Assembly: GCA_038060895.1 (NCBI GenBank)
Contig: JBBTCT010000022.1
Location: forward strand, 160,001-224,000
DNA length: 64,000 nucleotides
Direction: 5' to 3'
Origin: Planctomycetota bacterium
GTDB lineage: Bacteria > Planctomycetota > MHYJ01 > WSZJ01
Of the stretch, positions 22,103 through 39,663 are shown one piece after another. The stretch's first letter is position 1. The number at the start of each line of letters is the position of its first letter. Position numbers and translations under genes: made by a program. A model generated the notes under the pieces. The model saw only the letters and a program-made list of their open reading frames with translations. It had not been told where the DNA came from and ran no database searches.

Positions 22103-22398
22103 AAATCTGTCCGACGGATCTTCCTTTCATGCCCCGGGCTGTACGCAAATACGAACTATCCGGGGTACCGGCTCGGGCTGTACTTCCGGATCCAGGACCG
22201 GCGTGTAAAGCCAAGCCTGGCTTGGGATTCCGACGGAAAGGAGCTTTCCAAGCTCGATCTTCGGTCGCCGACCACTATCGGGAGGAAGTCTAGGAAGATG
22301 ATCGCCCAAGAGGCCCTCGAGGTTCATCGCTCGCCGAAGTGATTCCGGTACCTCGGCCGAGGATTGCCATCGAGCTCTCGATGAGACGTCACGGGTCG

Positions 22399-24651: not shown

Positions 24652-24974
24652 TTGTTCACGGGCGAATAATGTCAGATCGGCTGGGCCTGAACTCCGCGGT
24701 CCTGCCGTGTGGCTGGACATGCACGACATTCGGGAGAATCTAGAATTCCTGTACTAAAGTTGTCATCTGTTGTCCCTGGGAGTGAAGAGGGGCGCGCCTG
24801 GCTCGCGCCCCTCCCGAAAGTGTTCCGGCTAGAAGTGGAAGAATCTCAGTATCGAGGCAATCCACAGTGCCTCGCTGGCCTTTTCAATCAGACAGCAAAA
24901 GTGATAAAGCGCACGCCATAACCACAGCCATCTCTGCTTATCCACCTGTTCCATCTCACTTCCTTTCAAAAGCA

Positions 24975-25376
24975 CTAGAGAATTGGAGCCGCACATTGCG
25001 GATTTCCATTTGGGGCGGTCCGGCCAGGACAGAGTCTCCCCTCACCACCTTTATCGCTCGAGACGGCCTGAGGGTTCGCAGTAGTTCCGGAGTCCGGCGG
25101 CGCGACGAGTGTGAGCTTGAGAAGGGGGATTGGTGCCGCGCCGGCGGCCGCGAGGACGTTTCGTAGGTCAGCATCCCCCACGCCGATCTTTCGCGCCACG
25201 TCGACGAGCTTGTCTACGTTGTCGAGGCGTTTCGCATCAAGCTCAGCCTGGAGAAGATCGTCCTCGATCCGGCGTCGTCGACTGGGACTGACGCGTTGGA
25301 CGATGGCACTCACCGCGTCCACGATGACGCGGAGCACGCCAGCGACTCCGAAGACGTCCTTGGTTCCCGGGCCCAT
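24975..25376 (-). CDS. Hypothetical protein
   Basis: RBS ggaggg upstream of ATG; helical N-terminal half. Confidence 0.45.
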   Translation of the reverse strand: MGPGTKDVFGVAGVLRVIVDAVSAIVQRVSPSRRRRIEDDLLQAELDAKRLDNVDKLVDVARKIGVGDADLRNVLAAAGAAPIPLLKLTLVAPPDSGTTANPQAVSSDKGGEGRLCPGRTAPNGNPQCAAPIL

Positions 25377-25836
25377 CAGATTTCCCTCCGGTTGTGATCC
25401 TGCTTCCTCTTCTTTGCAGGAAAGCCGACCTTGAAAGCAACGTCTTTTTCGATCTCCTCAAGTGTGTCCGCGCCGGAGGTGCTCGGGAAAATCTACGCTA
25501 CCGTTACGCTACCCTTCGCCCGTTCGAACCCCTGGAAAGCAAAGGGCGAACGAACGCGCGAGAGGCATGAGGTACGAGACCTGCTTCGCACATGAGCCGT
25601 TCTCGCACGAGGGAGAGGCTAAGTGCAAATTTGACGCAGGAGCATTCCGCTCGATAATTTCACAACTACATACGGCACAGTGCTTTACAGAGAATCAGAA
25701 AATTCGGATTCACGTGTCGTCTCTTGGTGTGATCGACTCCGTTGCTGCTCTCGTACGCCGCGCGCAGCAGGGTCTTAGACTTAGCCACGATCGAGCCCGA
25801 ACCGATCCACAACCAGGATCGATTAGACTCCGCACC

Positions 25837-29792: not shown

Positions 29793-30422
29793 TGCTTCGC
29801 AGAAACGGGAAGTTCACATCGTGCCGAAAAACATCGGACGGTATGTCCGAGCTAAAACATCGGGGCCGAGATCTATCCATTCTGTTAGTCCCCGGGAATC
29901 TCAACGGCAATCGCCCGTTGCTCGTCGTCATCTTCTTTCCGCAGCAGCCCCCATGCCATTCGCGCGATCCGAAAGAACTCTGGCAAGGGCTGAGTGCCGG
30001 CCCAAGAGGCCAGCGGCACACGCCTGACACCGCCACCTGACTTCCGGACCTGAGCGTCGATGTGGGCACTCGCCAGAGGCCGCTCCGCAAGCGGAACGAG
30101 CCGAAGTCGGTCACGAAATCTCCGAATCACGGTGTCGAGGCTCGTGGAATGCAGACTGCGATACGAGTCCGTCCCGCTCGGCCACTTGAGAACGAAGAAC
30201 AGGTACCCCGTAGCTTTGTTGGGGACCCTTCGGTTTCGAGAAACGACCCGATAAACGCGCATGAACCGGAAGTCTACGAAATCGATGAATGTCTCCGTGC
30301 GGAAAGCGTTGACGCATGTGAAGCCCCGAACAGCCCGCCGCGTCACCGCGCTTGATTCGGGGCGACCCTCGGGACTAGCCTCCTGCTTTGGGACGCGTTC
30401 GCATCAGAAGGGTTACGATTTC

Positions 30423-30650
30423 ATGAGCGAAGGTGACGAGTACCTGCGGATGTACCCGCGCCTCGAAAAGTGGGTCCATCGGTGTGTAGGGTGCCAGCAT
30501 CGCGGGTACAAGCCCGAGCTGCCCGCCCACATTCCCCCGGGGGGCGCCGCGAAGAACATCCGTTCGCTCTTTGACGAACTCAGCCTCAACGGCGACGGAC
30601 TTTGCCAACAGTGCGCGAGAAACGTCGGGCGTGGGAACGCGGGTGCCTAA
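30423..30650 (+). CDS. Small putative Zn-binding protein
   Basis: 75 aa with CVGC...CQQC. Confidence 0.55.
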   Translation: MSEGDEYLRMYPRLEKWVHRCVGCQHRGYKPELPAHIPPGGAAKNIRSLFDELSLNGDGLCQQCARNVGRGNAGA

Positions 30651-30699
30651 ACTGGTGACCTAGGCCAGCTGGAGTCCAAAGAGTGCTTGATCCAAGAAG

Positions 30700-30843
30700 A
30701 TGTCACTCCGAAATCGCTCGGCTGAAGAAGCTGATGCGATCAGGGGACGATGAGCAGATCCGAATCAGCAACATCGCCGCGACCTACCGGATGGCTGGGA
30801 ACCGCAGGCGCGCGTTCGAGTGGTGGAAGCGCGCCGCCAGATG
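30700..30843 (+). pseudogene. Sel1/TPR-like gene remnant
   Basis: Reads EIARLKKLMRSGDDEQIRISNIAATYRMAGNRRRAFEWWKRAAR*; short and apparently frameshifted at the 5' end. Confidence 0.4.
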
Positions 30844-31018
30844 AACACGGATGCGCGATGACTGGCCCGCTTCCTCAAAGGCAATTGCCACGGGGTCCGG
30901 CAGATCTTCACCTACTTTAACGAGCGGAGGCCTTGGTTCACCCGATCAGGACCTGAACCAGTTGATGCGACTCCTGTGACAGTGGCAGAATACGACTTCG
31001 CATCTCTGGGGAGGGTCG

Positions 31019-31429
31019 ATGTCAATCACACTGCTGATTCGGGACGAGTCCGCGACGGGCGAAAGCTACCAGGAACTCCCCATCGAGTTCGAGACGGAGC
31101 GCATCACCGTGCGGGACCTGATCCGGGAGCGGGTGAGGCAGGAGGTGTCCTCGTTCAATCAGAAGCAGGGAGACCTGCACTTTCGCGGCCTGGTGCAACC
31201 GACCGACACCGAGCGGGTGCTGAACGGGCGGCGAACCGAGTATCGGCTGAAGGCTCCGCGTTCGATTGACTGGGAGGAGCAGTTCAGTCGCGCGATCGAG
31301 GCTTTCGGCCGGAGCGGGTTCTTTCTGCTCGTGGGCGAAAAGCAGGTCGAGAGCCTTGATCAAGAGCTCCTGATCGAGCCAGACACCCGGGTCAGCTTCG
31401 TGAAGCTCGTCCCGCTCGTGGGAGGCTAG
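31019..31429 (+). CDS. Ubiquitin-like (beta-grasp) protein with C-terminal GG
   Basis: RBS ggaggg; ITVRDLIRERV, FFLLVGEKQV, DTRVSFVKLVPLVGG* resembles the MoaD/ThiS/Ubl C-terminus. Confidence 0.7.
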   Translation: MSITLLIRDESATGESYQELPIEFETERITVRDLIRERVRQEVSSFNQKQGDLHFRGLVQPTDTERVLNGRRTEYRLKAPRSIDWEEQFSRAIEAFGRSGFFLLVGEKQVESLDQELLIEPDTRVSFVKLVPLVGG

Positions 31430-31431
31430 GC

Positions 31432-34400
31432 GTGGCCAAGGAGTCGTTCTTCCACCGGTTCTCCGCGCCTTCGGGCGATCCGTTGGCCACGGAACACGAA
31501 GCGGTAGCCCTGTACGTCACGCAAGCGCTTGCCAGCCTGGGGAAGGAATCCTACTGGAAGGACCTGGACCTCAAGGCCATTCCCGCCGGCCAGGTCATTC
31601 TCGCGGCAAAACCGGAGCAGGCGCGCCGCTTTCTCCTTGCGGCCGTGGCACAGTCGGTGCACTGGGAACGCGAAATTGAGCAGGTCCGCGCCCAGGCCAA
31701 GAACGTTCACGAACAGATGAACGCTCATCACCTGCCCGGCTGGCTCGAAGCCTACGGACCTCAGCGGCAGACCATGCAGGTAGCGCAGGCGTTGCTGCGC
31801 CGTTCCCTGCCGCTGAAGAAGGACGACATTCGCTCGCTCCTCGCGTGGTGCATCTCCGGCAAGGACGGAATCAGCTTCATGCTCCCGATTGGATTCGTCA
31901 CGCGCGCGATCGAGCGCTACATCGCCGAAGAGAGCCTGGACCAGGAGATTCGCGCGCAATTGGAGGACTTCGGGAAGCGTCTCCGCGCTTCGCACGACAA
32001 GGATTCGAAGCGCTTCGCGACGGCGGTCGAGCAAATGTGTGCGGGCGAAGGCTCATTGGCGGAGACGCCCGTTCCCACGACCCGCACTCCGGCGCCGCGC
32101 CCTTCGCAGGCCGGAAATCCAACGATTCTCGTCGCGCTGAAGCAGAAGCTGGGAGTTGCCGGGACCACTCCTGAAGTCCCCCACAGCGAAACGGGGGCCG
32201 ATCGCTTTTCACTGCGCGCGGACTCGCCCTTAGGACCCGAACACGAAAAGCTCAACGCCGTGATGACCGAGGTCGTTGGCACGACGAACTACTACAGCCC
32301 GGATTTCAGGAAGCTCGCGTCAGGACGCGCCGTGCTCGACACCAGTCGACCCGAACGCGGCCGGATGCTCTTGGCTGGAGCCGAGCGTCGCATCGGCGTC
32401 CTCCTTGCTCCGGCGGCCGCGTTGAACGAGCCTGCCGTCTGGCAATCGCGCTATGCGGCCGCCGCCACAGTTTCTGCCCTGCGGCACTCTCCCGTGGACC
32501 TCGATCGCGCGCAGCTGTTCGATTTTCTTCTCTACCTGTCCGCGCTTCAGGGACGCGAGATTCTGAACTGGGCGGAAGACTTCCCACGATTCCTGACGCA
32601 GTTGGAGAGCGAGTCGGCGAGGGATCCGCTGACCGAGGGCGAAAGATACGTGCTCTTCCTCTGGCGTGCATGCCTCATGTCGGGGCCCCCGCTCGGGACG
32701 TCGTCTCAGGAAATTGCGAAGCTCACGGCCCTCATTGGCGATGGCGCGATGTTCTTTCTCGTTCCGGGCGAAGCCTGGAGCGACGCTTTGAACACCTCGC
32801 TGACGGAATTGCCGGCGCGTGGACGCGCCGCATGGAAGGATCTCCTCGTGCACGCTTTGACGGCCACCGCGTCCAGACCTTCCGAAAAGTGGTTGAAGAC
32901 GGGGCGAAAGCTGATCGAAGGGGTCGGAGCCGAAACTGCGCGCGACTTTCTCTCAGCCTGGCTCGCACTCGTCCAGAAGGGCCAGACTATCAGGAAGCCG
33001 GGCGCGGGAGACGTCATCCACGAAGAGAACGCGACCTGCCTGCGCGGCTTGCTGTGGCTTGTCCCGCTTCTTCTTCGCCGGGACGACCTGGCGCGGACTG
33101 TCTCCTCCGTCGCGCTTTCCGCATATCGAAAGATCCCGGGCGTCGGTCCCCGCGCAGTAAAAGTGGGAAACGCCGCTGTTTACGCCCTTTCCGAGCTCGG
33201 CTCGACGGACGCCGTCGGGCAGCTCGCCATGCTAAAGGTGCGTGTGAAGTTCGGAACCGCACAAAAGGAGATCGAGAAAGCCTTCGATGCTTCGGCACAA
33301 GCGCTCGGCTTGCCACGTGATCAGATTGAAGAAATGGGAGTTCCGTCCTACGGGCTTGAAGAAGTGGGGCGGCTCAAGGAATCGATCGGGCAGTACCAGG
33401 CCGAGCTCCTGGTGACGGGGAGCGACGCCGAGCTGAAGTGGTCGGACGCAGCTGGAAAGGCGCTCAAATCAGTGCCCGCTGCATTGAAGAAAGAGCACGG
33501 GGAAGAGTTAAAGGAACTTCAGCAGTCGCTGAAAGACATCCAGGCAATGCTGCCGGCTCAGCGCGACCGGATCGACGCTCTCTTTCTCTCGCAGAAATCA
33601 TGGCCGCTCGGGGCATGGCGCGAACGCTATCTGGACCACCCGCTGGTCGGCTCGATCTCGCGGCGCCTCATCTGGTGCGTCGACGGCGCGCCCGCACTGT
33701 TCCTGGACGGAACTGCATCCGATGTTCACGGGAAGTCATTCCGCGCTTCGGAAGGGGCGACGATCACCCTTTGGCACCCCGTCGGCCGGAGTGTCGTCGA
33801 GATAACGTCCTGGAGGCGCCGCCTCGAGTCGCTCGGAGTCACTCAGCCCTTCAAGCAGGCCCATCGCGAGATCTACCTGCTGACCGACGCGGAGCTGCGC
33901 ACGAGGACCTATTCCAATCGCTTCGCGGCCCACATCCTCCGGCAGCACCAGTTCAACGCTCTCTGTGCGGCTCGCGGCTGGAAGAACAAGCTGCGCCTCA
34001 TGGTGGACGACACTTACCCACCTGCGACTCGCGACCTGCCCCAGTGGGGGTTGCGAGTGGAGTTCTGGATCGAAGGCGTCGGCACCGAGTACGGCGGGGA
34101 CACGAACGAGTCCGGGGTCTACCTGCGCGTCGCCACGGATCAAGTGCGCTTCTACCGCAGAGAAACCGCCGAGAGCCGCGCCCATGCTGGCGGCGGCGGC
34201 TATGCAGCGAACGCCGGCGGGCCGGCGCACGGCAATGACATCGAACCACTGACTCTCGACCTCATTCCGCCGCTGGTCTTTTCAGAGAGCATGCGCGATG
34301 TTGACTTGTTTGTCGGCGTCGGCTCCGTCGGAAACGACCCCACCTGGCAGGATGGCGGTCCTCAGGGTGCCTTCCGCGCCTACTGGCAGAGTTACTCGTT

Positions 34401-34746
34401 TGGCGAGCTCTCCGCGAGCGCGGCGACGCGGCGGGAGGTGCTTCAGCGTCTCGTCCCGCGCCTCAAGATCGCCGACCGATGCTCCTTCGCGGACCGCTTC
34501 CTCATCGTGCGTGGTGAGAAGCGCACGTACAAAATCCACCTGGGCTCGGGAAACATCCTGATGGAACCGAATGACCAGTACCTCTGCATTGTTCCGGACC
34601 AGCGAGCTCGCTCGGCCGAAGAGAGCCTGTACCTCCCATTCGAGGGTGATTCCGTGCTCTCCATCATCATTAGCAAGGCGCTCCTTCTCGCCGCTGACTC
34701 GAAGATCAAGGATCCCACGATCGTGACGCAGATCGAGAAGGTCTGA
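31432..34746 (+). CDS. DUF4132 domain protein
   Basis: YLDHPLVG...RRLIW, ITLWHPV, QPFKQAHRE, FSESMRDVDLFV, YKIHLGSGN. Confidence 0.88.
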   Translation: MAKESFFHRFSAPSGDPLATEHEAVALYVTQALASLGKESYWKDLDLKAIPAGQVILAAKPEQARRFLLAAVAQSVHWEREIEQVRAQAKNVHEQMNAHHLPGWLEAYGPQRQTMQVAQALLRRSLPLKKDDIRSLLAWCISGKDGISFMLPIGFVTRAIERYIAEESLDQEIRAQLEDFGKRLRASHDKDSKRFATAVEQMCAGEGSLAETPVPTTRTPAPRPSQAGNPTILVALKQKLGVAGTTPEVPHSETGADRFSLRADSPLGPEHEKLNAVMTEVVGTTNYYSPDFRKLASGRAVLDTSRPERGRMLLAGAERRIGVLLAPAAALNEPAVWQSRYAAAATVSALRHSPVDLDRAQLFDFLLYLSALQGREILNWAEDFPRFLTQLESESARDPLTEGERYVLFLWRACLMSGPPLGTSSQEIAKLTALIGDGAMFFLVPGEAWSDALNTSLTELPARGRAAWKDLLVHALTATASRPSEKWLKTGRKLIEGVGAETARDFLSAWLALVQKGQTIRKPGAGDVIHEENATCLRGLLWLVPLLLRRDDLARTVSSVALSAYRKIPGVGPRAVKVGNAAVYALSELGSTDAVGQLAMLKVRVKFGTAQKEIEKAFDASAQALGLPRDQIEEMGVPSYGLEEVGRLKESIGQYQAELLVTGSDAELKWSDAAGKALKSVPAALKKEHGEELKELQQSLKDIQAMLPAQRDRIDALFLSQKSWPLGAWRERYLDHPLVGSISRRLIWCVDGAPALFLDGTASDVHGKSFRASEGATITLWHPVGRSVVEITSWRRRLESLGVTQPFKQAHREIYLLTDAELRTRTYSNRFAAHILRQHQFNALCAARGWKNKLRLMVDDTYPPATRDLPQWGLRVEFWIEGVGTEYGGDTNESGVYLRVATDQVRFYRRETAESRAHAGGGGYAANAGGPAHGNDIEPLTLDLIPPLVFSESMRDVDLFVGVGSVGNDPTWQDGGPQGAFRAYWQSYSFGELSASAATRREVLQRLVPRLKIADRCSFADRFLIVRGEKRTYKIHLGSGNILMEPNDQYLCIVPDQRARSAEESLYLPFEGDSVLSIIISKALLLAADSKIKDPTIVTQIEKV

Positions 34747-35134
34747 GAGGCCCCGGACCCTGCGCGCTTAAGGCAGTCTCGGAATCTCGCCGTGCCGGAC
34801 GGAAGTAACTGCATCGGATAACCGAGCCCAGACCGGCGAGTTCTTCGTTGCTTGAAAAGGGCTCCCCGATCAGAACTCGAACTGATTGCGCGAGCATTTC
34901 GCGATGATGGCGCTTCATGCATCGAAGCTGTCAAGGCGCCGCGTCCACGGGACAGGGCCTACTCGTGCGCTCAGCGGAAAGTTCGGATTTCATCCAGACT
35001 GGTGACCAGACTGGATACGAATACGAACTATGGCCGAGATGGCGAAGGGCCTCCAGTTCAGCTAACTGAAGCCAGCGGCGGAAGTTGCATCAATTTCTGC
35101 CTGCGACAGCTGATAGTTCGTATTTCATCCAAAG

Positions 35135-35207
35135 TGCCCCCCGCAGGATTCGAACCTGCACAAGACCGGTTTTGAATCGGTCGCCTCTGCCGTTGGGCTA
35201 CGAGGGC
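35135..35207 (-). tRNA. trnL: tRNA-Leu(CAA), short variable loop
   Basis: Loop TTCAAAA; T-loop TTCGAAT; G7:G66 mismatch. Confidence 0.82.
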
Positions 35208-35219
35208 CTGCGAATCAAA

Positions 35220-35290
35220 AGCTCCCGATGGGAATCGAACCCACACCCTCCTGCTTACGAGGCAGGTGCTCTCCTTTGAGCTACAAGAGC
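35220..35290 (-). tRNA. trnT: tRNA-Thr(CGT)
   Basis: CCTGC-CTCGTAA-GCAGG. Confidence 0.85.
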
Positions 35291-35293
35291 GGA

Positions 35294-35364
35294 TGCGCTC
35301 GTCAGGACTCGAACCTGCATCGGCCGGTTATCGACCGGCTGCTCTACCGCTGAGCTACGGGCGC
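35294..35364 (-). tRNA. trnI: tRNA-Ile(GAT), C33
   Basis: GCCGG-TCGATAA-CCGGC. Confidence 0.85.
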
Positions 35365-35367
35365 GCA

Positions 35368-35438
35368 AGCCTCTCGAGGGGGACGATCCCTCTTCTCCTG
35401 CCTGGGAAGCAGGCGTTCCACCGTTAAACCAGAGAGGC
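35368..35438 (-). tRNA. trnG: tRNA-Gly(CCC), aberrant T-loop
   Basis: CCTGC-TTCCCAG-GCAGG; T-loop ATCGTCC; U73. Confidence 0.75.
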
Positions 35439-35442
35439 GAAG

Positions 35443-35514
35443 TGCTCTCGGCAGGAATCGAACCTGCGGTCTTCAGCATGTCGGGCTGCCGCTCTTCCGC
35501 TGAGCTACGAGAGC
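35443..35514 (-). tRNA. trnV: tRNA-Val(GAC), C33
   Basis: CAGC-CCGACAT-GCTG. Confidence 0.85.
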
Positions 35515-35581
35515 CGTTCGACTCGCTTCGCTCGCTCACGGCGGAGCAGACGAGTTCGGTCGAATCGCGGGCAAAACCAGA

Positions 35582-35652
35582 TGGTCCCAGGAGGAGTTGA
35601 ACCTCCGTCGCCGGTATGTGAGACCGGCATTCTCCCGTTGAACTACGGGACC
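35582..35652 (-). tRNA. trnV: tRNA-Val(CAC)
   Basis: CCGGT-CTCACAT-ACCGG. Confidence 0.87.
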
Positions 35653-35654
35653 GA

Positions 35655-35727
35655 TGCTCGGGGGAGGATTCGAACCTCCACTGACCAGCTTCTGAGACTG
35701 GTGCCTCTGCCGTTGGGCTACGCGAGC
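35655..35727 (-). tRNA. trnL: tRNA-Leu(CAG), short variable loop
   Basis: CCAGT-CTCAGAA-GCTGG. Confidence 0.83.
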
Positions 35728-35856
35728 GTTGTGGTTGTCGCTGGGGACGACTGGATGTGGGCGGCCGTGCGGCGGAGGCGAAGGGTGCCCCGGCGCGCGC
35801 CTGGTTCATCAGCACTCTTGCGCCCGCAGCCTCCGACGCCGGGCGCCCACGTCCAG

Positions 35857-35932
35857 TCGGGATGGCTGGATTTGAACCAGCGATCTCCTCGTCCCGAACG
35901 AGGCGTGTTGAGCCAGGCTTCACTACATCCCG
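35857..35932 (-). tRNA. trnP: tRNA-Pro(CGG)
   Basis: C1:G72, CCTCG-TTCGGGA-CGAGG. Confidence 0.9.
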
Positions 35933-35934
35933 GA

Positions 35935-36006
35935 AGCGACTGGTGGGACTCGAACCCACGTCGACCACCATGGCAAGGTGGCGCTCAGCCTCTGAGCCAC
36001 AGCCGC
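35935..36006 (-). tRNA. trnG: tRNA-Gly(GCC)
   Basis: CCACC-TTGCCAT-GGTGG, U73. Confidence 0.9.
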
Positions 36007-36020
36007 GTTTTGATTCAAGA

Positions 36021-36093
36021 AGCCCTCGGCGGGGATCGAACCCGCATCAGCTTGTTTGGAAGACAGGCGCCTTCGCCGTTCGGCCACGAGAGC
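36021..36093 (-). tRNA. trnG: tRNA-Gly(TCC)
   Basis: Loop CTTCCAA, U73. Confidence 0.85.
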
Positions 36094-36107
36094 GGAATTG
36101 TTGTAAG

Positions 36108-36185
36108 TGGGCCCTCGACGGGAGTCGAACCCGTCGTCTCCCTTCCTCATACGGAAGGGTGTCTCGCCGCTCGACTACGAGGACC
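36108..36185 (-). tRNA. Non-canonical tRNA-like RNA with enlarged anticodon arm (possible His(ATG))
   Basis: GGTCCTCG/CGAGGGCC 8-bp acceptor, normal T-arm ACGGG-TTCGACT-CCCGT, anticodon arm CCCTTCC-GTATGA-GGAAGGG. Confidence 0.65.
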
Positions 36186-36189
36186 GTTA

Positions 36190-36273
36190 TGGGTGCGGCA
36201 GGAGTTGAACCTGCTGAGCCCGCGAGGGCTGCTGGGTTACGGCCAGCTCAGTTTTCCGATTCCGTACACACCC
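36190..36273 (-). tRNA. trnY: tRNA-Tyr(GTA), C33, long variable arm
   Basis: GCTGG-CCGTAAC-CCAGC. Confidence 0.87.
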
Positions 36274-36394
36274 TGAGTTCGCGCGACGGGTCGGCGAGTC
36301 GCGCAATTGACGGTGGGCGCTTCGACTCGTGTCCGGGCGCTTCGCGCCCGGCACTCGCTCAGGGCATTCGCCTCGCCAGAGCCACCGTTCGCGG

Positions 36395-36457
36395 TCGGCT
36401 CCGCCATGAGCGAGCCCCCGTGAGAGGCGCGGTGCGCCTCTCACGGTGCGAGTCGAA
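36395..36457. repeat. REP-like element (TTCGACTC...CTCGCTCA family), copy 1
   Basis: tcggctccgccatgagcgagcccccgtgagaggcgcg...gcgagtcgaa; near-identical copy at 37276-37339. Confidence 0.75.
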
Positions 36458-36529
36458 TGGAAGCGGCAGGGTTCGCACCTGCGTCGGCTCGTTTAGGAAA
36501 CGAGGGCCTGTCTACTCGGCCACACTTCC
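36458..36529 (-). tRNA. trnR: tRNA-Arg(CCT), G55 T-loop
   Basis: CTCGT-TTCCTAA-ACGAG; T-loop TGCGAAC. Confidence 0.8.
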
Positions 36530-36531
36530 GA

Positions 36532-36602
36532 TGGGGACGGAGGGAGTTGAACCCGCATCACGAGGTTCGTAGTCTCGTGTCCTTCCGTTGGACGACGTCC
36601 CC
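36532..36602 (-). tRNA. trnR: tRNA-Arg(ACG)
   Basis: Loop CTACGAA. Confidence 0.82.
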
Positions 36603-36608
36603 GACTCA

Positions 36609-36681
36609 TGGTGAAGGGTGGGATCGAACCACCACATCCTGGTCTTCAGCCAGGCGCTCAGACCCTCTGAGCTACTTCACC
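36609..36681 (-). tRNA. trnF: tRNA-Phe(GAA)
   Basis: CCTGG-CTGAAGA-CCAGG. Confidence 0.9.
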
Positions 36682-36686
36682 GCAAA

Positions 36687-36757
36687 TAGGCGCGGCGGGA
36701 ATCGAACCCGCTCTTTCAGGTTGAAGGCCTGGGTGCCTGCCATTAGCTGACGCGCCC
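36687..36757 (-). tRNA. trnE: tRNA-Glu(TTC), C33
   Basis: CAGG-CCTTCAA-CCTG. Confidence 0.78.
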
Positions 36758-36768
36758 GCACGATTGGA

Positions 36769-36841
36769 TGGGAGCGGAGGGATTCGAACCCTTCCTCGTC
36801 CGGGTTAAAAATCCGGTGCTCAGCCACTGAGCGACGCGCCC
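36769..36841 (-). tRNA. trnK: tRNA-Lys(TTT)
   Basis: Loop TTTTTAA. Confidence 0.83.
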
Positions 36842-36849
36842 TTGCGCAA

Positions 36850-36921
36850 TAGAGTCGGTGGGACTTGAACCCACATAGGCCTGCTTAAGAGGCAGGAGCT
36901 CGGCCGTTGAGCGACGACTCT
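36850..36921 (-). tRNA. trnK: tRNA-Lys(CTT)
   Basis: CCTGC-CTCTTAA-GCAGG. Confidence 0.88.
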
Positions 36922-36925
36922 GTAA

Positions 36926-36998
36926 TAGGGATGGAGGGATTCGAACCCTCGTCTCCAGGCTGAGAACCTGGCCGCCTTGGCCACTGGCCGACATCCCC
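36926..36998 (-). tRNA. trnE: tRNA-Glu(CTC)
   Basis: CCAGG-TTCTCAG-CCTGG. Confidence 0.85.
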
Positions 36999-37009
36999 GG
37001 GCGTAGAAA

Positions 37010-37080
37010 CAGGGGGGGCTGGATTCGAACCAGCAGAACGAGTGTCAGAGGCTCGGGGGTTACCGTTACCCGACCCCCCT
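37010..37080 (-). tRNA. trnQ: tRNA-Gln(CTG)
   Basis: Loop CTCTGAC, G73. Confidence 0.82.
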
Positions 37081-37087
37081 CTTTTGA

Positions 37088-37158
37088 CAGAGGCGGAAGG
37101 AATCGCACCCTCATCACCGGACTTGGAAACCGGAGTCCTGCTGTTGGACGACGCCTCT
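37088..37158 (-). tRNA. trnW: tRNA-Trp(CCA), G55 T-loop
   Basis: Loop TTCCAAG, A1:U72, G73; T-loop TGCGATT. Confidence 0.82.
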
Positions 37159-37163
37159 ACGAA

Positions 37164-37235
37164 TGGAAGTGGTGGGAATCGAACCCACAGTCTCCTGCTT
37201 GCGGAGCAGGCGCCTTCCCGTTGGGCTACACCCCC
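37164..37235 (-). tRNA. trnA: tRNA-Ala(CGC), C33
   Basis: G3:U70; CCTGC-TCCGCAA-GCAGG. Confidence 0.87.
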
Positions 37236-37275
37236 GAATGCAAGTCCTTCAACTGGTCAAAGCCTCCGTCCCGTC

Positions 37276-37339
37276 TCGGCTCCGCCATGAGCGAGCCCCC
37301 GTGAGAGGCGCGAAGCGCCTCACATGGGGGCGAGTCGAA
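37276..37339. repeat. REP-like element, copy 2
   Basis: Near-identical to 36395-36457; also abuts a tRNA 3' end. Confidence 0.75.
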
Positions 37340-37411
37340 TGGAAGCGGCGGGAATCGAACCCGCATGGGCCTGTCTGCCGGACAGGTGCCTTCCCGTTAG
37401 GCAACGCCCCC
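37340..37411 (-). tRNA. trnA: tRNA-Ala(GGC), C33
   Basis: G3:U70; CCTGT-CCGGCAG-ACAGG. Confidence 0.87.
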
Positions 37412-37433
37412 GACGTTTTCGTCGTTTTCCATT

Positions 37434-37550
37434 CCCGTGCGCGAGGATGTCGTGCGGCGCAGCGAGGAGGTGCGTCGGGCCCGCGCCGGCCATTTGGCGC
37501 GGAGTCCGGCGCGCTTCCTCGCGAAGCCGCACGACATCCTCGCGCACGGG
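37434..37550. repeat. Long hairpin at the 3' end of tRNA-Ser(GCT)
   Basis: cccgtgcgcgaggatgtcgtgcggc...gccgcacgacatcctcgcgcacggg. Confidence 0.85.
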
Positions 37551-37638
37551 GAGTGGGGTTTTCTACCCCCGGGGGCCGCCTTGAGGGCGGCCCGCCTCGT
37601 TAGCAATGAGGTGCTTTAAGCCGCTCAGCCACCTCCCC
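37547..37638 (-). tRNA. trnS: tRNA-Ser(GCT), degenerate T-arm
   Basis: Loop TTGCTAA, long variable arm, T-loop lacks TTC. Confidence 0.7.
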
Positions 37639-37666
37639 GGATTTGCGCGATGGGATCGCGCATTGA

Positions 37667-37755
37667 AGGAAGGTGAAGGATTCGAACCTTCGTCCCCCTC
37701 GCGGGGGCTCCTGTTTTCGAGACAGGCGCGATAAGCCGGACTCTGCCAACCTTCC
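37667..37755 (-). tRNA. trnS: tRNA-Ser(CGA)
   Basis: CCTGT-CTCGAAA-ACAGG, long variable arm. Confidence 0.9.
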
Positions 37756-37760
37756 GTGGA

Positions 37761-37833
37761 CAGGGGCACCAGGATTCGAACCTGGATCAACCTCCTTAAC
37801 AGGGAGGTGACTTACCGGTTAGCCCACACCCCT
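37761..37833 (-). tRNA. trnN: tRNA-Asn(GTT)
   Basis: CCTCC-CTGTTAA-GGAGG, G73. Confidence 0.87.
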
Positions 37834-37853
37834 AACTTGCACGGGCCTTTCCG

Positions 37854-37954
37854 CTCGTGCCGCGTGCGGCGGAGCGAATCTGGACGCCGCGCCCGCGCCG
37901 GACTTTCGGCGCGGCGTGCGGCGTCCGGATTCGCGGAGCCGCATGCGGCACGAG
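37854..37954. repeat. Long hairpin at the 3' end of tRNA-Asp
   Basis: ctcgtgccgcgtgcggc..gcgaatctggacgccgc / gcggcgtccggattcgc..gccgcatgcggcacgag. Confidence 0.85.
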
Positions 37955-38024
37955 GGCGACGGGATTTGAACCCGTGATCTCCGCCGTGACAGGGCGGTGT
38001 CTTGAGCCTCTGGACGACGCCCCC
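37951..38024 (-). tRNA. trnD: tRNA-Asp(GTC)
   Basis: CCGCC-CTGTCAC-GGCGG, G73. Confidence 0.92.
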
Positions 38025-38028
38025 AGAA

Positions 38029-38100
38029 TCGCGCCTGCAGGAATCGAACCTGCCTGCTCCTGGTTCCAGGCCAGGCGCGCAGCCACTGCGCCAAGACGCG
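38029..38100 (-). tRNA. trnP: tRNA-Pro(TGG), C33, A37
   Basis: C1:G72, A73; CCTGG-CCTGGAA-CCAGG. Confidence 0.85.
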
Positions 38101-38129
38101 AGGAATTGCTTTTTTGCCGGGCCGTTCCA

Positions 38130-38217
38130 TTTGCGGAGGGGTGGGAGTCGAAGGAACGCGGAGTCGCGCGGCCGTTCGTGCGACTCCGCGTTCCTTCGAC
38201 TCCCACCCCTCCGCAAA
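38130..38217. repeat. Long near-perfect hairpin at the 3' end of tRNA-Cys
   Basis: tttgcggaggggtgggagtcgaaggaacgcggagtcgc...gcgactccgcgttccttcgactcccacccctccgcaaa. Confidence 0.9.
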
Positions 38218-38290
38218 GCGCGGAAGTGGATTCGAACCACTGCGCACCGGTTTTGCGGACCGAGCCGTTGAGCCACTCCGGCATCCGCGC
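38217..38290 (-). tRNA. trnC: tRNA-Cys(GCA), C33
   Basis: CGGT-CCGCAAA-ACCG, U73. Confidence 0.85.
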
Positions 38291-38296
38291 GCTTGA

Positions 38297-38367
38297 TAGC
38301 GGGAAGGGGAATCGCACCCCTGTGTGCGGCTTATGAGACCGCCGATCAGCTACTGATCCATCCCGCA
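38297..38367 (-). tRNA. trnM: tRNA-Met(CAT), initiator-like (unpaired 1:72), G55 T-loop
   Basis: GCGGT-CTCATAA-GCCGC; T1:T72. Confidence 0.78.
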
Positions 38368-38455
38368 GGGATTTGAGGTGGGAGGTTGTTGATTTGCGAG
38401 GCGAGACGAACGGCCGCCTCGCCTCGCACATCAACAACCTCCCACCTCAAATCCC
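38368..38455. repeat. Long hairpin abutting the 5' end of tRNA-Met
   Basis: gggatttgaggtgggaggttgttgat...atcaacaacctcccacctcaaatccc. Confidence 0.9.
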
Positions 38456-38567
38456 CGGTACGGCAATGACCGCACGAACAGGGGAGAAAAGAACCGGCCC
38501 GGGCGCGTCGCCGTGAGGGGGGGAGGGGCGGACGTCGGGGGAGGGCCATTGTTGCCCGGGCCGGGGA

Positions 38568-38640
38568 TGTGTCCGGCAGGAGTCGCACCTGCAACCTCCA
38601 GATTCGGAGACTGGGGCTCTTCTGGTTGAGCTACAGACAC
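38568..38640 (-). tRNA. trnR: tRNA-Arg(CCG), A37, G55 T-loop
   Basis: Loop CTCCGAA; T-loop TGCGACT. Confidence 0.82.
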
Positions 38641-38667
38641 AGGGAAGAAGGGTCGTTTTGCCGTTCG

Positions 38668-38793
38668 CCAATTCGCGCTTCGGGATGATGAAGCGACGGG
38701 GTCGGGGCGAGCGGCCACACTTGAAGGCAAGCTGACCAGAGATTGTGAGCGAGCTCCGACTCCGTCGCTTCATCATCCCGAGGCGCGAATTGG
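38668..38793. repeat. Long hairpin (41-bp stem) at the 3' end of tRNA-Gln(TTG)
   Basis: ccaattcgcgcttcgggatgatgaagcgacggggtcggggc...gctccgactccgtcgcttcatcatcccgaggcgcgaattgg. Confidence 0.9.
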
Positions 38794-38860
38794 GGCGGCA
38801 CGACTCGAACGTGCACGGCGAGGTTCAAGGGCTCGCGGCCTACCTTTAGCTGACGCCCCA
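38790..38860 (-). tRNA. trnQ: tRNA-Gln(TTG), C33
   Basis: U1:A72, TGGGG start; loop CCTTGAA. Confidence 0.82.
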
Positions 38861-38878
38861 GAAGTTTCGTTGCCGTCC

Positions 38879-38994
38879 TGAATGCAGGGGTGTGATCGAT
38901 CGATTGGCTTGTCGTTCGGCCCGGGCGGAGCCGGCCGTATGGCGGAGGTCGGGACGAACGACGAGCCAATCGATCGATCACACCCCTGCATTCA
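38879..38994. repeat. Long hairpin (~40-bp stem) at the 3' end of the CTC tRNA
   Basis: tgaatgcaggggtgtgatcgatcgattggcttgtcgttcg...cgaacgacgagccaatcgatcgatcacacccctgcattca. Confidence 0.9.
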
Positions 38995-39067
38995 TCGGGG
39001 TTGAAGGAGTTGAACCTTCATCTGCGCATTGAGGGGGCGCCGTCCTCAGCCATTAGACGAAACCCCA
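38995..39067 (-). tRNA. tRNA with CTC anticodon (Glu) on a Gln-like acceptor, C33
   Basis: TGGGGTT/AACCCCG acceptor; GCGCC-CCCTCAA-TGCGC. Confidence 0.7.
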
Positions 39068-39089
39068 GGAAGGCGAGGGCAGCAGAGAT

Positions 39090-39230
39090 TCAGAAAAACC
39101 GGCTCCCGATTCCCGGGTTGGGAATGGGATGACATGGAACCGGAAGCCGGTTCGGGAAGATCCGCCGGTTATCAAAGATCACTTCGCGCTGCGTCGGTTG
39201 ACCGCAACTTGCGCTTCCATCTCCTGGCAT
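39090..39230 (-). CDS. Putative leader peptide (46 aa) of the tRNA array
   Basis: AGGAGG RBS 6 nt before ATG; the ORF runs through the boxA-like site and the terminator. Confidence 0.45.
   Translation of the reverse strand: MPGDGSASCGQPTQREVIFDNRRIFPNRLPVPCHPIPNPGIGSRFF
39094..39152 (-). terminator. Intrinsic terminator/attenuator hairpin
   Basis: AACCGGCTTCCGGTTCC...GGAATCGGGAGCCGGTTTTT; the G-U pairs fit the minus-strand RNA. Confidence 0.6.
39168..39182 (-). promoter_or_regulatory. boxA-like antitermination element
   Basis: GTGATCTTTGATAAC resembles the rrn boxA (CTTTGAAAAC/CTTTAACAA). Confidence 0.55.
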
Positions 39231-39245
39231 GACGTTCCTCCTGCA

Positions 39246-39316
39246 AGGGACCGGTCGGGGTTGCACCGACGTCTCCCGGGCCACAGCCGGGCGGTCTGCT
39301 GTTGAGCTACAGTCCC
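39246..39316 (-). tRNA. trnH: tRNA-His(GTG)-like, lacking G-1:C73
   Basis: CCCGG-CTGTGGC-CCGGG; C at -1, U73; T-loop TGCAACC. Confidence 0.7.
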
Positions 39317-39338
39317 GTGGCGGCGCCGGTCTGGAAGG

Positions 39339-39365
39339 TTGATGAGTGAAGCGGCGAAAAGGTTC
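39339..39365 (-). promoter_or_regulatory. Candidate ECF-sigma promoter for the array
   Basis: GAACC-N16-CATCAA just upstream of the first tRNA. Confidence 0.35.
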
Positions 39366-39381
39366 GCGCGTGTGGAAAACG

Positions 39382-39415
39382 AAAACGCCGCCGAGTGATC
39401 GGCGGCGTTCTGTTT
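39382..39415. terminator. Rho-independent terminator
   Basis: aaaacgccgccga-gtga-tcggcggcgttctgttt. Confidence 0.7.
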
Positions 39416-39435
39416 GATCCTGGTCTGGCCGGCGG

Positions 39436-39663
39436 CTACATGCACTCGTTGCCCATTCCGACGTCTTCCGAACCGGCGCCGGATTCCGAGTCCATGCCGC
39501 CTTCGGTCGCGTCGCCGCCGGAGTGATCGTCCGTGCCGGGGAGCGGGCCGTCGCCGGTGCCGCCACCGTCGTAACCCGGCGCGGGCGGGGGAGGGCAGGC
39601 GAACGTCAGGACCGGGCTGGACAGGACTGCGAGGGTCACGAGCGCGATGATGAAGAGTTTCAT
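39436..39663 (-). CDS. Small exported acidic Gly/Pro-rich peptide
   Basis: RBS aaggag; signal peptide MKLFIIALVTLAVLSSPVLTFA; followed by a terminator. Confidence 0.65.
   Translation of the reverse strand: MKLFIIALVTLAVLSSPVLTFACPPPPAPGYDGGGTGDGPLPGTDDHSGGDATEGGMDSESGAGSEDVGMGNECM

Follow-up and report, generated by a model that had tools for sequence, protein, structure and literature searches.

Long single-copy palindromes bordering tRNA genes and further stable-RNA genes in one planctomycete genus

The window, by which we mean the whole 64,000-nucleotide stretch of planctomycete DNA analysed here, carries a supernumerary tRNA array with six long hairpins at the ends of its genes (Table 1). 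tRNA array units comprise about 20 or more tRNA genes; here 34 are packed into 4.2 kb, many and dense and beyond the ordinary set, so that the locus can be classed as such a unit. The Rfam tRNA model recovers 30 of the 34 array genes at gathering score, together with a Leu-gag gene outside the array, and the Rfam scan of the window gave nothing except tRNAs at that score. Elsewhere in the genome there are 51 dispersed tRNA calls, which have 28 anticodons in common with the array and, according to the genome-wide calls, cover most of the array anticodons. Identity between array tRNAs and the corresponding housekeeping tRNAs is 49-78%. CCA follows none of the 34 array genes, the next base being T in 29 of them. 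We found no promoter-like site inside the array, nor on either strand of positions 34900-39600. The same interval contains eight terminator-like sites, none of which coincides with any of the six hairpins; on this ground, and with tails that are A-rich in the sense of the tRNAs, we rejected a reading of the hairpins as intrinsic terminators.

Table 1 Features of the tRNA array, its hairpins and its surroundings (positions are those of the window)
Feature	Position	Strand	Description
Hen1	25462-27234	plus	Pfam Hen1_L 4e-115; context only, outside the hairpin class
Pnkp	27099-29729	plus	Pfam PNKP_ligase 2.6e-168; context only, outside the hairpin class
Supernumerary tRNA array	35134..39316	minus	34 tRNA genes, no encoded CCA (ARAGORN)
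Seventh long, less perfect hairpin	35752..35855	.	begins directly after tRNA-Pro-cgg (gap fold)
Composite structured spacer, Arg-cct to Tyr	36274..36457	minus	several shorter hairpins
H1 tail	37412-37433		22 nt, up to tRNA-Ala-ggc
Hairpin H1	37434..37550	.	arms 45 nt, 87%; 5 nt inside 3' end of tRNA-Ser-gct
H2 tail	37835-37853		19 nt, up to tRNA-Asn
Hairpin H2	37854..37954	.	arms 37 nt, 86%; 5 nt inside 3' end of tRNA-Asp
H3 tail	38102-38129		28 nt, up to tRNA-Pro
Hairpin H3	38130..38217	.	arms 41 nt, 98%; 1 nt in common with 3' end of tRNA-Cys
H3 loop			12 nt, in tRNA sense ACGAACGGCCGC
Hairpin H4	38368..38455	.	arms 41 nt, 95%; adjoins 5' end of tRNA-Met (38367)
Rest of Arg-ccg to Met gap	38456..38564	minus	second, looser stem and distal flank of H4
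H5 tail	38642-38667		26 nt, with AACGGC
Hairpin H5	38668..38793	.	arms 41 nt, 93%; 4 nt (CCAA) inside 3' end of tRNA-Gln-ttg
H6 tail	38861-38878		18 nt
Hairpin H6	38879..38994	.	arms 45 nt, 96%; begins directly after tRNA-Glu-ctc

An inverted-repeat search, from which the hairpin coordinates are taken (the tRNA ends being those of ARAGORN), recovered the same six inverted repeats that an earlier note on this DNA had described, with arms of 37-45 nt that are 86-98% complementary. Each is present once in the 5.4-Mb genome, the remaining matches being its own other strand, in agreement with the claim that the hairpins are unique. High-copy REP or MITE families without preference for tRNAs, which the note had held up as the contrary outcome, are thus not what we find; the hairpins are single-copy and strongly associated with tRNAs. 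When folded on both strands, as had been proposed, all six were more stable than shuffled sequences (z between -11.2 and -17.4), and in each of the 12 folds (six hairpins on both strands) 0 of 200 shuffles were equally stable. DNA contigs from runs of two other studies cover the hairpin arms and loops with 0 differences; the hairpins are therefore not an assembly artefact. (A separate observation is that those DNA contigs end within the palindromes, which is typical of de Bruijn assembly.)

Other claims of the earlier note survived in part. Five hairpins do lie at tRNA 3' ends and one at the 5' end of tRNA-Met, but the overlap is 0-5 nt rather than 1-4 nt. The statement that the six have no obvious sequence in common is too strong, in that H3 and H4 have an identical 12-nt apical loop in opposite orientation, and H1 and H2 a common GC-rich apical mini-stem. 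The plus-strand fold is indeed the stronger one in five of the six (the exception being 38368-38455), and three positions of H5 that are G-T on the plus strand are A-C on the minus strand, but this asymmetry is weak beyond the array. Two further features of the array deserve mention. The seventh hairpin has related sequence at the same junction in three relatives (G001, G003 and G005). A portion of the Arg-cct to Tyr spacer is found again at 37236-37339 and immediately 3' of the tmRNA gene; the spacer matches G000:C19:25457-25628, adjoining the tmRNA at C19:25598-25981, G000 being the genome of the window.

A scan of G000 for hairpins with arms of at least 30 nt returned 232, of which 23 lie between -10 and +3 nt from a tRNA end. 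Random placement, repeated 2000 times, gave 0.09 on average and never more than 3. Eighteen of the 23 tRNA-abutting hairpins lie beside dispersed housekeeping tRNAs, at one end of the gene or the other. The genome has no second copy of 20 of the 23, and among the 209 remaining hairpins the same is true of 38. At 17 of the 23 the hairpin reaches into the tRNA by 1-8 nt, and at 7 of these by 4 nt or more. (These 17 hairpins inside tRNA ends provide the factual basis for the idea, also raised in the earlier note, of hairpins competing with acceptor stems.) Unique hairpins were found, moreover, 3 nt from the 5' end of the SRP RNA, 6 nt inside the 5' end of the RNase P RNA and over the 3' end of a sub-threshold 6S candidate. 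Altogether, 28 of 62 unique long hairpins are located at stable-RNA flanks, and by a rough estimate such flanks make up a few percent of intergenic DNA. Thus, tolerance of palindromes at these sites does not on its own explain the enrichment. Another 171 long hairpins are not unique, having matches elsewhere in the genome and mostly belonging to repeated families.

Motifs recur among these otherwise unique sequences. The identical 12-nt loop occurs at seven loci in G000, six of which adjoin tRNAs. At all eight independent loci the way it faces depends on which side of the gene it is; a single orthologue is flipped. AACGGC is common to apex and tail, and in the distal flank it points outward at 8 of the 23 tRNA-abutting hairpins and inward at none. 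GAGGGG is found in the outer arm of 6 of the 28 stable-RNA hairpins as compared to 2 of 205 others (1.2 being expected from shuffles), and GAWTT in that of 7 of the 28 (0.8 expected). A motif of this kind should not persist in neutral palindromes, and may point to a recognition site or to a mobile ancestor that the hairpins share. Among simple duplication or inversion schemes we found none that yields the tail and loop motif.

Arrays with hairpins of this kind are present in all eight genomes of the genus, at differing junctions. The eight arrays contain 231 inter-tRNA junctions whose lengths are bimodal, with 129 of 35 nt or less, 15 of 36-89 nt and 87 of 90 nt or more. Of these 87 long gaps, 76 reach a folding energy of -0.45 kcal/mol per nt or better, compared to 19 of 87 shuffles. 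Which junctions are filled varies by species, and where a hairpin is lacking the junction is a short pyrimidine spacer. For example, the Cys to Pro junction that holds H3 is 115 nt long in G000 and an empty 8-9 nt in G002 and G004; the H5 junction is 5-8 nt in G003 and G002; and G005, G004, G001 and G003 lack a hairpin at the H6 junction, which there spans 14-66 nt. By comparison, related gap sequence occupies the H2 junction in G002 and G003, and H4 has orthologues in G002, G003, G004 and G005. Relatives also have recognisable families of gap hairpins at different junctions, and the arrays of G004, G003 and G001 contain unstructured C-rich spacers of 47-66 nt. Housekeeping loci show the same variation: the SRP-Ser-Ser-Arg locus has five hairpins in G000, four in G004, two short ones in G006 and none in G007, and the hairpin at the 5' end of RNase P RNA, whose orthologues have arms of 37-61 nt, is found in five of the eight genomes of the genus, whereas none of 22 genomes of other families has it. 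A 16-mer comprising the 12-nt loop and its closing GC pairs matched at least 120 metagenome stretches. Flanking arms of at least 25 nt were present at 0 of the 80 loci listed, which indicates that the matches are due to chance and says little about the true spread. A full-text search of the literature turned up nothing on palindromes next to genes for tRNAs or other stable RNAs. Long single-copy palindromes at stable-RNA ends appear to be a class restricted to the genus, and one for which we found no published precedent.

How the arms change between species was most readily seen in H4. The earlier note had suggested looking for covariation in relatives, and across the five H4 orthologues both sides had changed in 16 of 38 pairs, one-sided variation occurring in none; 96.8% of the cells of the alignment are paired, and 0 of 500 shuffles reached the double-sided pattern. 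In G003 the H4 loop is inverted relative to G000, G002, G004 and G005, with point differences. Read in tRNA sense, the arm mismatches of the 23 tRNA-abutting hairpins in G000 comprise 14 A-C, 8 G-U and 20 others, so that G-U is not enriched, and those of 30 array hairpins in relatives comprise 27 A-C, 13 G-U and 52 others. G outnumbers C in the 5' arm of 27 of the 28 stable-RNA hairpins and of 31 of the 34 other unique hairpins, as against 82 of the 171 from repeated families. An excess of T over A in the 5' arm, predicted by the published template-switch asymmetry, was not seen (15 of 28). As described in one study, template switching makes and repairs perfect stems, inverts loops and prefers G-C over C-G pairs (PMC8794818); two others describe homogenised arms, inverted spacers and expanded inverted repeats (PMC8604942, PMC13100816). 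Taken together, the double-sided changes, the mismatches in which G-U is not favoured, the flipped loop and the variable presence fit template switching at the level of DNA. Of the alternatives listed in the earlier note, that of folding as single-stranded DNA comes nearest, in the form of DNA-level maintenance, as judged by the mismatch spectrum, the double-sided changes and the flipped loop.

Repair genes were surveyed in 41 genomes. SbcD, a hairpin nuclease subunit, was over cut-off in none of the eight genus genomes and in 4 of the 41 overall, three of the four belonging to sister families of the same order. It is also absent from most other genomes of the class, which have no hairpin at RNase P. 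Matches to xseA were present in 39 of the 41 genomes, including all eight of the genus, two of these being below cut-off. We therefore rejected a genus-specific loss of SbcD or xseA as the cause, since the distribution of neither gene accounts for the restriction to the genus. The lack of SbcD over cut-off in the genus may provide a permissive background for palindromes.

The explanation that we favour, to which we would assign about an even chance, is that the hairpins are self-correcting palindromes in the transcribed and discarded flanks of stable-RNA genes, that they serve at most as generic structured spacers, and that their symmetry comes from DNA-level template switching. It starts from what is observed of the hairpins, namely their anatomy, copy number, association with stable-RNA ends, substitution pattern and turnover; transcription, processing and the template-switch mechanism we infer. 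Hairpins with arms of about 36-70 nt would occupy 5' leaders, 3' trailers and inter-tRNA spacers, and those of the array would be transcribed together with the tRNAs from the minus strand. They would then be removed as the tRNA ends form, by RNase P on the 5' side and, because no CCA is encoded, by an endonuclease cutting past the discriminator on the 3' side. The 3' cut is assumed, since the canonical RNase Z did not exceed its cut-off (TIGR02651, best match 69 bits against 293, in a genome that is 86.5% complete). As far as sequence can tell, the filling of gaps, the promoter-less array and the missing CCA are consistent with, and lend support to, such co-transcription and release at tRNA maturation. 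Because they would be cut away when the tRNA ends form, hairpins could be tolerated right up to the mature ends and even a few bases into them. Template switching from arm to arm during replication, rather than selection on an RNA helix, would preserve the near-perfect symmetry; it would homogenise the arms, could flip the loop and would lengthen the arms until constrained sequence halts it. A hairpin might arrive as a unit with its tail or grow in place. Single hairpins are gained and lost fast between species; at any one site they would be dispensable, and a role, if there is one, would be generic, that of a self-contained structured spacer with no tie to Hen1.

An explanation to which we give a smaller, though still appreciable, chance is that selection maintains the hairpins as cis-acting RNA modules within the precursors of stable RNAs, where they sequester leader, trailer and spacer RNA. 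Such modules might block mispairing with the tRNA, exonuclease entry or Rho loading on a 4-kb untranslated transcript, and might perhaps be entry sites for RNase III. The specific association with the mature ends of tRNAs, RNase P RNA and SRP RNA is what one would expect of them, as are the 5' hairpins of dispersed genes, placed downstream of a promoter-like -35/-10 pair and ahead of the mature 5' end (for example that of tRNA-Cys on C12, flanks judged by eye) and the sites that are kept despite sequence change (H4 in five genomes, the RNase P 5' hairpin in five of eight). RNase III is present, at 223.7 bits and over cut-off, and the stems of 37-45 bp might be cut by it. The G-rich 5' arm would mean that no C-rich single strand is exposed while a hairpin is transcribed, which might bear on Rho; as a general rule the anti-Rho idea is weakened because of the unstructured C-rich spacers of 47-66 nt in G004, G003 and G001. 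Presence, however, varies at every locus examined, housekeeping loci included, and more than half of all junctions (129 of 231), at 35 nt or less, have no hairpin. Moreover, being perfect brings an RNA stem of about 40 bp no advantage, yet G-U is rarer than A-C or transversion mismatches, and the loop is the reverse complement on opposite sides of the gene and so could not be read by one RNA-binding factor. A stable 5' leader structure near the cleavage site has also been reported to influence the kinetics of RNase P (PMC10731613). A bolder version, which we regard as rather improbable, holds that stable-RNA genes (those for tRNAs, RNase P RNA and SRP RNA, and probably 6S and tmRNA) are deliberately capped by hairpin modules, that the apical loop and the distal AACGGC are read by a dedicated factor, that maturation frees perfect dsRNA hairpins of 90-130 nt as a new class of by-product or signal, and that the palindromes are built where replication meets heavy transcription.

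Equally improbable in our estimation is a diverged mobile palindromic element, MITE-like and consisting of a hairpin with a tail of about 20 nt, that inserts preferentially at stable-RNA gene ends. Filled and empty sites are clean, the tail belonging to the inserted DNA (Cys to Pro, 115 versus 8-9 nt), the common apical loop, the outward AACGGC tail and the degenerate outer-arm motifs GAGGGG and GAWTT recur, relatives have gap-hairpin families at different junctions, and the genome holds 171 non-unique long hairpins. The termini, which a transposase would need to recognise, are nevertheless the variable part, 20 of the 23 hairpins are single-copy, the IS200/RAYT-type Y1 transposase (PF01797) has 0 matches in G000 at 86.5% completeness, comparison of filled with empty junctions shows no sign of a target-site duplication, and a DNA transposon has no obvious way of locating a mature RNA end. 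We consider still less probable that the palindromes work as DNA or from the antisense strand, as cruciforms that buffer supercoiling or bind protein near heavily transcribed genes, or as antisense RNA. The antisense fold is the stronger in five of six hairpins, and the motif points outward from the gene on both sides, as a double-stranded DNA site would. In arrays A-C exceeds G-U in the sense strand, by 6 to 1 in the five hairpins scanned in G000 and by 27 to 13 in relatives, although the latter figure overstates the bias because orthologues are not independent. Dispersed hairpins, by contrast, have no strand bias (8 A-C versus 7 G-U), neither strand of 34900-39600 has a promoter-like site, and no candidate binding protein was identified. 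Very unlikely, finally, is the idea that tRNA processing frees discrete, perfect dsRNA hairpins that act in trans and are possibly methylated at their 3' ends by Hen1. Hen1 and Pnkp are encoded 5-10 kb from the hairpins, the anatomy is like that of a tRNA with a hairpin directly behind it, and a second genome with Pnkp also has it beside the array. The Hen1 link suggested in the earlier note is not supported, however, in that hairpins occur in eight of eight genus arrays and Pnkp was found in two of eight genomes, and in that hairpins of the same kind lie at housekeeping tRNAs, RNase P RNA and SRP RNA distant from Hen1. In addition, the arm sequences are unconstrained and replaced between species, and they have no other match in the genome that could be a target; bacterial Hen1 and Pnkp, moreover, form an RNA repair pair.

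If the hairpins are, as we favour, palindromes maintained by template switching, then the genus is a natural experiment in which template switching builds, repairs, flips and extends perfect hairpins, with dozens of independent loci and eight species for comparison, and the process extends as far as the points at which essential RNAs are cut. RNase P and the 3' endonuclease would have to handle a 40-bp helix stacked on the acceptor stem, which is the more striking since the gene for RNase P RNA itself bears such a hairpin. For annotators of tRNA arrays there is a caution here, in that structure and covariation are in this case no proof of a functional RNA. Should the loop and tail motif mark a recognition system instead, they would represent a new kind of stable-RNA gene architecture.

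Several known systems resemble the hairpins in part. REP/BIME, ERIC, Correia/NEMIS and MITE-like elements are intergenic, hairpin-forming, about 100-150 bp long, likely co-transcribed with neighbouring genes and variably present. The six hairpins are like them in size, intergenic position, variable presence and likely co-transcription, and the same genome holds many repeated families; unlike them they are single-copy, with variable termini, no RAYT-type transposase found, and a location at stable-RNA ends rather than at random intergenic sites. Copy number rules out reading the six as a high-copy REP or MITE family. Integron attC sites are likewise palindromes of about 60-140 bp that are conserved in structure and variable in sequence, punctuate an array of short cassettes and fold better on one strand. 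They carry extrahelical bases in their stems, whereas the stems here are long and perfect and occur also at dispersed single genes; an attC reading was rejected, as none of the six end pairs fits RYYYAAC ... GTTRRRY when inspected by eye. In murine gammaherpesvirus 68, tRNA-linked pre-miRNA hairpins with short, imperfect stems are freed by tRNase Z and enter the Dicer pathway. As in these TMER transcripts, a hairpin directly follows a tRNA-like unit and would be set free by processing of the tRNA 3' end, five of the six here starting 0-5 nt from a tRNA 3' end; the present stems, by contrast, are perfect over about 40 bp and are found also on the 5' side and at RNase P and SRP RNA, in a genome in which the RNase Z equivalog was not found.

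The array itself has counterparts too. Planctomycetes are among the phyla with tRNA arrays in a prokaryotic survey (Tran et al. 2016, PMC4758250), and arrays are also described for mycobacteria (PMC12803027). What the window has in common with the array units of PMC4758250 is a dense supernumerary array, diverged from the housekeeping tRNAs, beside a complete dispersed set. What sets it apart is the long palindromes at about one third of the junctions: the words hairpin, palindrom-, inverted repeat, intergenic and spacer are all absent from the main text of that survey. For the palindromes, a counterpart is the quasipalindrome maintained by template switching, which they resemble in their double-sided changes, homogenised arms, inverted loop, lengthened stems and excess of G in the 5' arm. 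The template-switch studies deal with short stems in rRNA, microRNA loci, yeast genes and promoters. The hairpins described here differ from those cases in having no T over A asymmetry, and in having arms of 36-70 nt that lie at the ends of stable RNAs in one genus.

A repeat search of the window returned six inverted repeats with coordinates identical to those of the earlier note, which had proposed six hairpins at tRNA ends. The arms of these hairpins (H1 to H6) are 37–45 nt long, 86–98% complementary and 6–44 nt apart. On both strands they fold with z scores of −11.2 to −17.4, and in each of the 12 folds all 200 dinucleotide shuffles were less stable. Their placement was borne out as well: five of the six start 0–5 nt inside or at a tRNA 3′ end, the last base of H4 directly precedes tRNA-Met, and in every case the far side of the hairpin is separated from the next tRNA by a spacer of 18–28 nt. 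In five of the six the plus strand folds more stably than the minus strand. The reported plus-strand excess of G-T mismatches is present in the window array but does not extend to the dispersed hairpins described below (8 A-C versus 7 G-U). The arms and loops recur with no differences in DNA runs that come from two further, independent studies, and thus the hairpins are not assembly artefacts. (Note that in run X5 one low-depth contig joins 38376 to 38888, with 511 bases missing that include tRNA-Arg-ccg, tRNA-Gln-ttg and their hairpins; the join may come from a variant strain, from a relative or from an artefact of the assembly graph at the palindromes.)

Coordinates of the hairpins, genes and elements discussed in the text (window positions unless a contig of the same genome, G000, is named)
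Feature	Position	Strand	Remarks
H1	37434-37550		
H2	37854-37954		
H3	38130-38217		
H4	38368-38455		
H5	38668-38793		
H6	38879-38994		
tRNA array	35134-39316	minus	34 tRNA genes (ARAGORN)
Candidate island	22028-34746		KAP P-loop NTPase, Hen1, Pnkp, small ORFs, 1104-aa DUF4132/DUF7737 protein
KAP P-loop NTPase	22399-24729	minus	
tRNA-like gene	36109-36184	minus	four-base anticodon (tatg), no amino acid (ARAGORN)
46-codon ORF	39090-39230	minus	in the gap from tRNA-His to tRNA-Glu-ctc, same strand as the tRNAs
Stem within the 46-codon ORF	~39096-39153		followed by a T run
Element 3′ of tRNA-Ala-ggc	37236-37339		
Element 3′ of tRNA-Arg-cct	36274-36457		
Element 3′ of tmRNA	G000:C19:25457-25628		
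Hairpin with the 12-nt loop	G000:C7:244918-245047		arms of 59 nt

Thirty of the 34 array tRNAs reach the Rfam gathering score, as does tRNA-Leu-gag outside the array, and Rfam found no family besides tRNA in the whole window. The genome to which the window belongs (5.4 Mb in 47 contigs, 86.5% complete) has 85 ARAGORN tRNA calls, 34 in the array and 51 dispersed. The two sets have 28 anticodons in common, and array tRNAs are only 49–78% identical to the housekeeping gene of the same anticodon. CCA follows none of the 34 array genes, one dispersed gene apparently ends in CCA, and the base 3′ of the discriminator is T in most array and housekeeping genes. The same array, with largely the same tRNA order, is found in all seven other genomes of the genus. 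(At the position of the tRNA-like gene with the four-base anticodon, relatives carry Asn-gtt in G004, Gln-ttg in G005 and G001, and an unassigned call in G003.) The 46-codon ORF is preceded by a strong Shine-Dalgarno sequence, GGAGGAACGTC, then begins with ATG and traverses a stem; its C-terminal half and the stem are also present between His and Glu in G004, G005, G003 and G001. The ORF could be a leader peptide or attenuator ahead of the remaining array, and it is probably what had been called the leader terminator.

An inverted-repeat scan of the genome (arms of at least 30 nt; a simple heuristic that missed H2) yielded 232 long hairpins, 174 of which match other sequence in the genome, most of them falling into repeated families. 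The largest families have 34, 30, 21, 15 and 13 members and no G-rich 5′ arm; the repeated-family hairpins look like ordinary elements of the MITE or REP type. The distance to a tRNA end is between −10 and +3 nt for 23 hairpins; in 2000 random placements such cases averaged 0.09 and never exceeded 3. Five of these 23 belong to the array, and the remaining 18 adjoin 15 dispersed housekeeping tRNAs, some of which have a hairpin on each side and the others on one side only, 5′ or 3′. Moreover, 20 of the 23 are single-copy, compared to 38 of the 209 others. An Rfam run around 34 of those 38 placed one unique hairpin beside the SRP RNA, 3 nt away from its 5′ end. The RNase P RNA has two: one shares 6 nt with its 5′ end, and the other lies 24 nt beyond the 3′ end, past a small terminator-like stem. 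Yet another runs into the 3′ end of a putative 6S RNA, whose score of 38.6 bits is under the cut-off of 46.4. The sequence flanking the tmRNA gene on its 3′ side is similar to one of the structured array spacers. According to a crude gene caller, the 34 other unique hairpins are mostly intergenic and often a few tens of bases from ORF ends. The scan and the Rfam results at other stable-RNA genes thus make the six hairpins part of a genome-wide habit: they are local cases of long, single-copy palindromes that closely adjoin the ends of stable-RNA genes. (A repeated element lies 3′ of tRNA-Ala-ggc, tRNA-Arg-cct and tmRNA, three genes with CCA-like acceptor ends; it starts with TTCGACTCGC, contains a 13-bp hairpin and continues with GCTCGCTCATGGCGGAGCC, and pieces of it are present elsewhere in genomes of the genus.)

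The stems had originally been described as having no obvious sequence in common, yet H3 and H4 have the same 12-nt apical loop. This identical loop occurs on unrelated arms at seven loci of the genome, six of which, H3 and H4 included, abut tRNAs. Read outward from the gene it has the same orientation at all eight independent loci of the genus, with one flipped orthologue in G003. The seventh copy, on contig C7, is the sole one with no known RNA gene beside it. Rfam gave no match up to 600 nt away; an unannotated stable RNA may lie next to this hairpin. In the distal flank, 8 of the 23 tRNA-abutting hairpins have an outward-directed AACGGC and none an inward-directed one; on the 5′ side this motif is identical to the GCCGTT box that hairpin-less tRNA genes carry downstream of the −10 and ahead of the mature end. 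Among the 28 hairpins that abut tRNA or other stable-RNA genes, the outer arms carry GAGGGG in six (1.2 in shuffles) and GAWTT in seven (0.8 in shuffles). G exceeds C in the 5′ arm of 27 of these 28 and of 31 of the 34 other unique hairpins, but in only 82 of 171 family hairpins.

Across the eight arrays of the genus, 231 inter-tRNA junctions (tRNA ends as given by ARAGORN; all eight genomes are incomplete MAGs) divide into 129 of at most 35 nt, 15 intermediate and 87 of at least 90 nt. The long gaps have a mean MFE of −0.577 kcal/mol per nt compared to −0.396 in shuffles, and −0.45 kcal/mol per nt is reached by 76 of the 87 versus 19 of 87 shuffles. Which junctions are long depends on the species: Cys to Pro measures 115 nt in G000 and 124 nt in G005 but 8–9 nt in G002 and G004, whereas Met to Cys measures 6 nt in G000 and 100–131 nt in G006, G002 and G005. 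Unfilled junctions are short pyrimidine spacers, and in filled ones hairpin and tail are both additional DNA. (At the junction of H6, Glu-ctc to Gln-ttg, the gaps L020, L025 and L027 of G004, G003 and G001 are unstructured, C-rich, G-poor spacers of 47–66 nt made of short GCCAGCCTTC-like tandem units.) The 5′ hairpin of the RNase P RNA is present in five of the eight genomes of the genus and in none of 22 genomes that belong to the same order and class but to different families. It lies between the mature 5′ end and a conserved −10-like box, which would be a promoter −10; in G005 the gene begins ~10 nt past this box. The SRP-Ser-Ser-Arg housekeeping locus has five hairpins in G000, four in G004 (one on the opposite side of tRNA-Ser-cga), two short ones in G006 and none of at least 24 nt in G007. 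These varying counts at the two loci indicate that the presence of a hairpin at a single site is not conserved.

The five orthologues of H4 align without gaps. Seventeen of their 38 pairs are invariant, 16 are changed on both sides, with transversion swaps among them, no variable pair is one-sided, and 96.8% of cells are paired; none of 500 shuffles reaches any of the five measures, although the compared orthologues are not mutually independent. In the tRNA sense, arm mismatches are 8 G-U, 14 A-C and 20 other in the 23 hairpins of G000, and 13 G-U, 27 A-C and 52 other in 30 array hairpins of relatives. A selected RNA helix should show mostly G-U, which is not the case here. In the G003 orthologue of H4 the loop is inverted, and the arms of the RNase P hairpin orthologues measure 37, 49, 49, 50 and 61 nt. 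Moreover, 17 of the 23 hairpins reach 1–8 nt into the tRNA, seven of them by at least 4 nt, where chance predicts well under one case. Replication template switching is described (PMC8794818, PMC8604942, PMC13100816) as changing both sides of a stem at once, homogenising the arms, inverting loops, lengthening stems and enriching G on the 5′ side. (The asymmetry described in PMC8794818 also predicts T>A in the 5′ arm, which is found in only 15 of 28, so that this prediction is unmet.)

We give roughly even odds to the reading that the hairpins are neutral, self-correcting palindromes in the flanks of stable-RNA genes. It builds on what was demonstrated, namely position, copy number, association, substitution pattern and turnover. 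The array would be made as a single long minus-strand transcript (promoter-like sites were absent from 34900–39600), and the hairpins would be cut away as RNase P and a 3′ endonuclease form the tRNA ends. Such removal at maturation would let palindromes persist and grow until they reach sequence that the cell cannot spare, with template switching preserving their perfection. RNase III is present in the genome and could cut such stems. In this genome, which is 86.5% complete, no match to a canonical RNase Z exceeded the cut-off (69 bits at best); this contrasts with the near-total lack of encoded CCA and the T after the discriminator in its tRNAs. SbcD is over the cut-off in none of the eight genomes and xseA is present. 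The apparent absence of SbcD may help long palindromes survive but does not account for a genus-only distribution, since most of the class also lacks it.

The neutral reading is held no higher because the hairpins are more enriched at stable-RNA ends than tolerance alone would predict, because loop and tail motif are kept while the arms drift, and because the hairpins are restricted to the genus. A selected role as structured spacers is possible, at perhaps one chance in four. We consider it unlikely that the hairpins are a diverged mobile family seeking stable-RNA ends. A role at the DNA level appears improbable, and it is very doubtful that they serve as trans-acting small RNAs. The proposed link to Hen1 is not supported, as hairpins occur with or without Hen1 and Pnkp and also far from them. 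Hen1 and Pnkp are themselves well supported. Together with the KAP NTPase and the DUF4132 protein they occupy a 13-kb stretch between tRNA-Leu-gag and the remaining array. In relatives Leu-gag is at the end of the array, adjoining Leu-caa; G+C is lower at 22–26 kb (0.57), and the stretch looks like an inserted island. Pnkp is found in two of the eight genomes of the genus, array-adjacent in both, and a functional tie between the RNA repair pair and the spare tRNA set is plausible.

We found no prior description of palindromes at stable-RNA ends in the full-text literature outside subscription journals. A term search of the main text of the survey by Tran et al. (PMC4758250) found neither hairpin, palindrom-, inverted repeat, intergenic nor spacer. 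The array itself is a supernumerary tRNA array of the kind covered by that survey, which names Planctomycetes among the array-bearing phyla.
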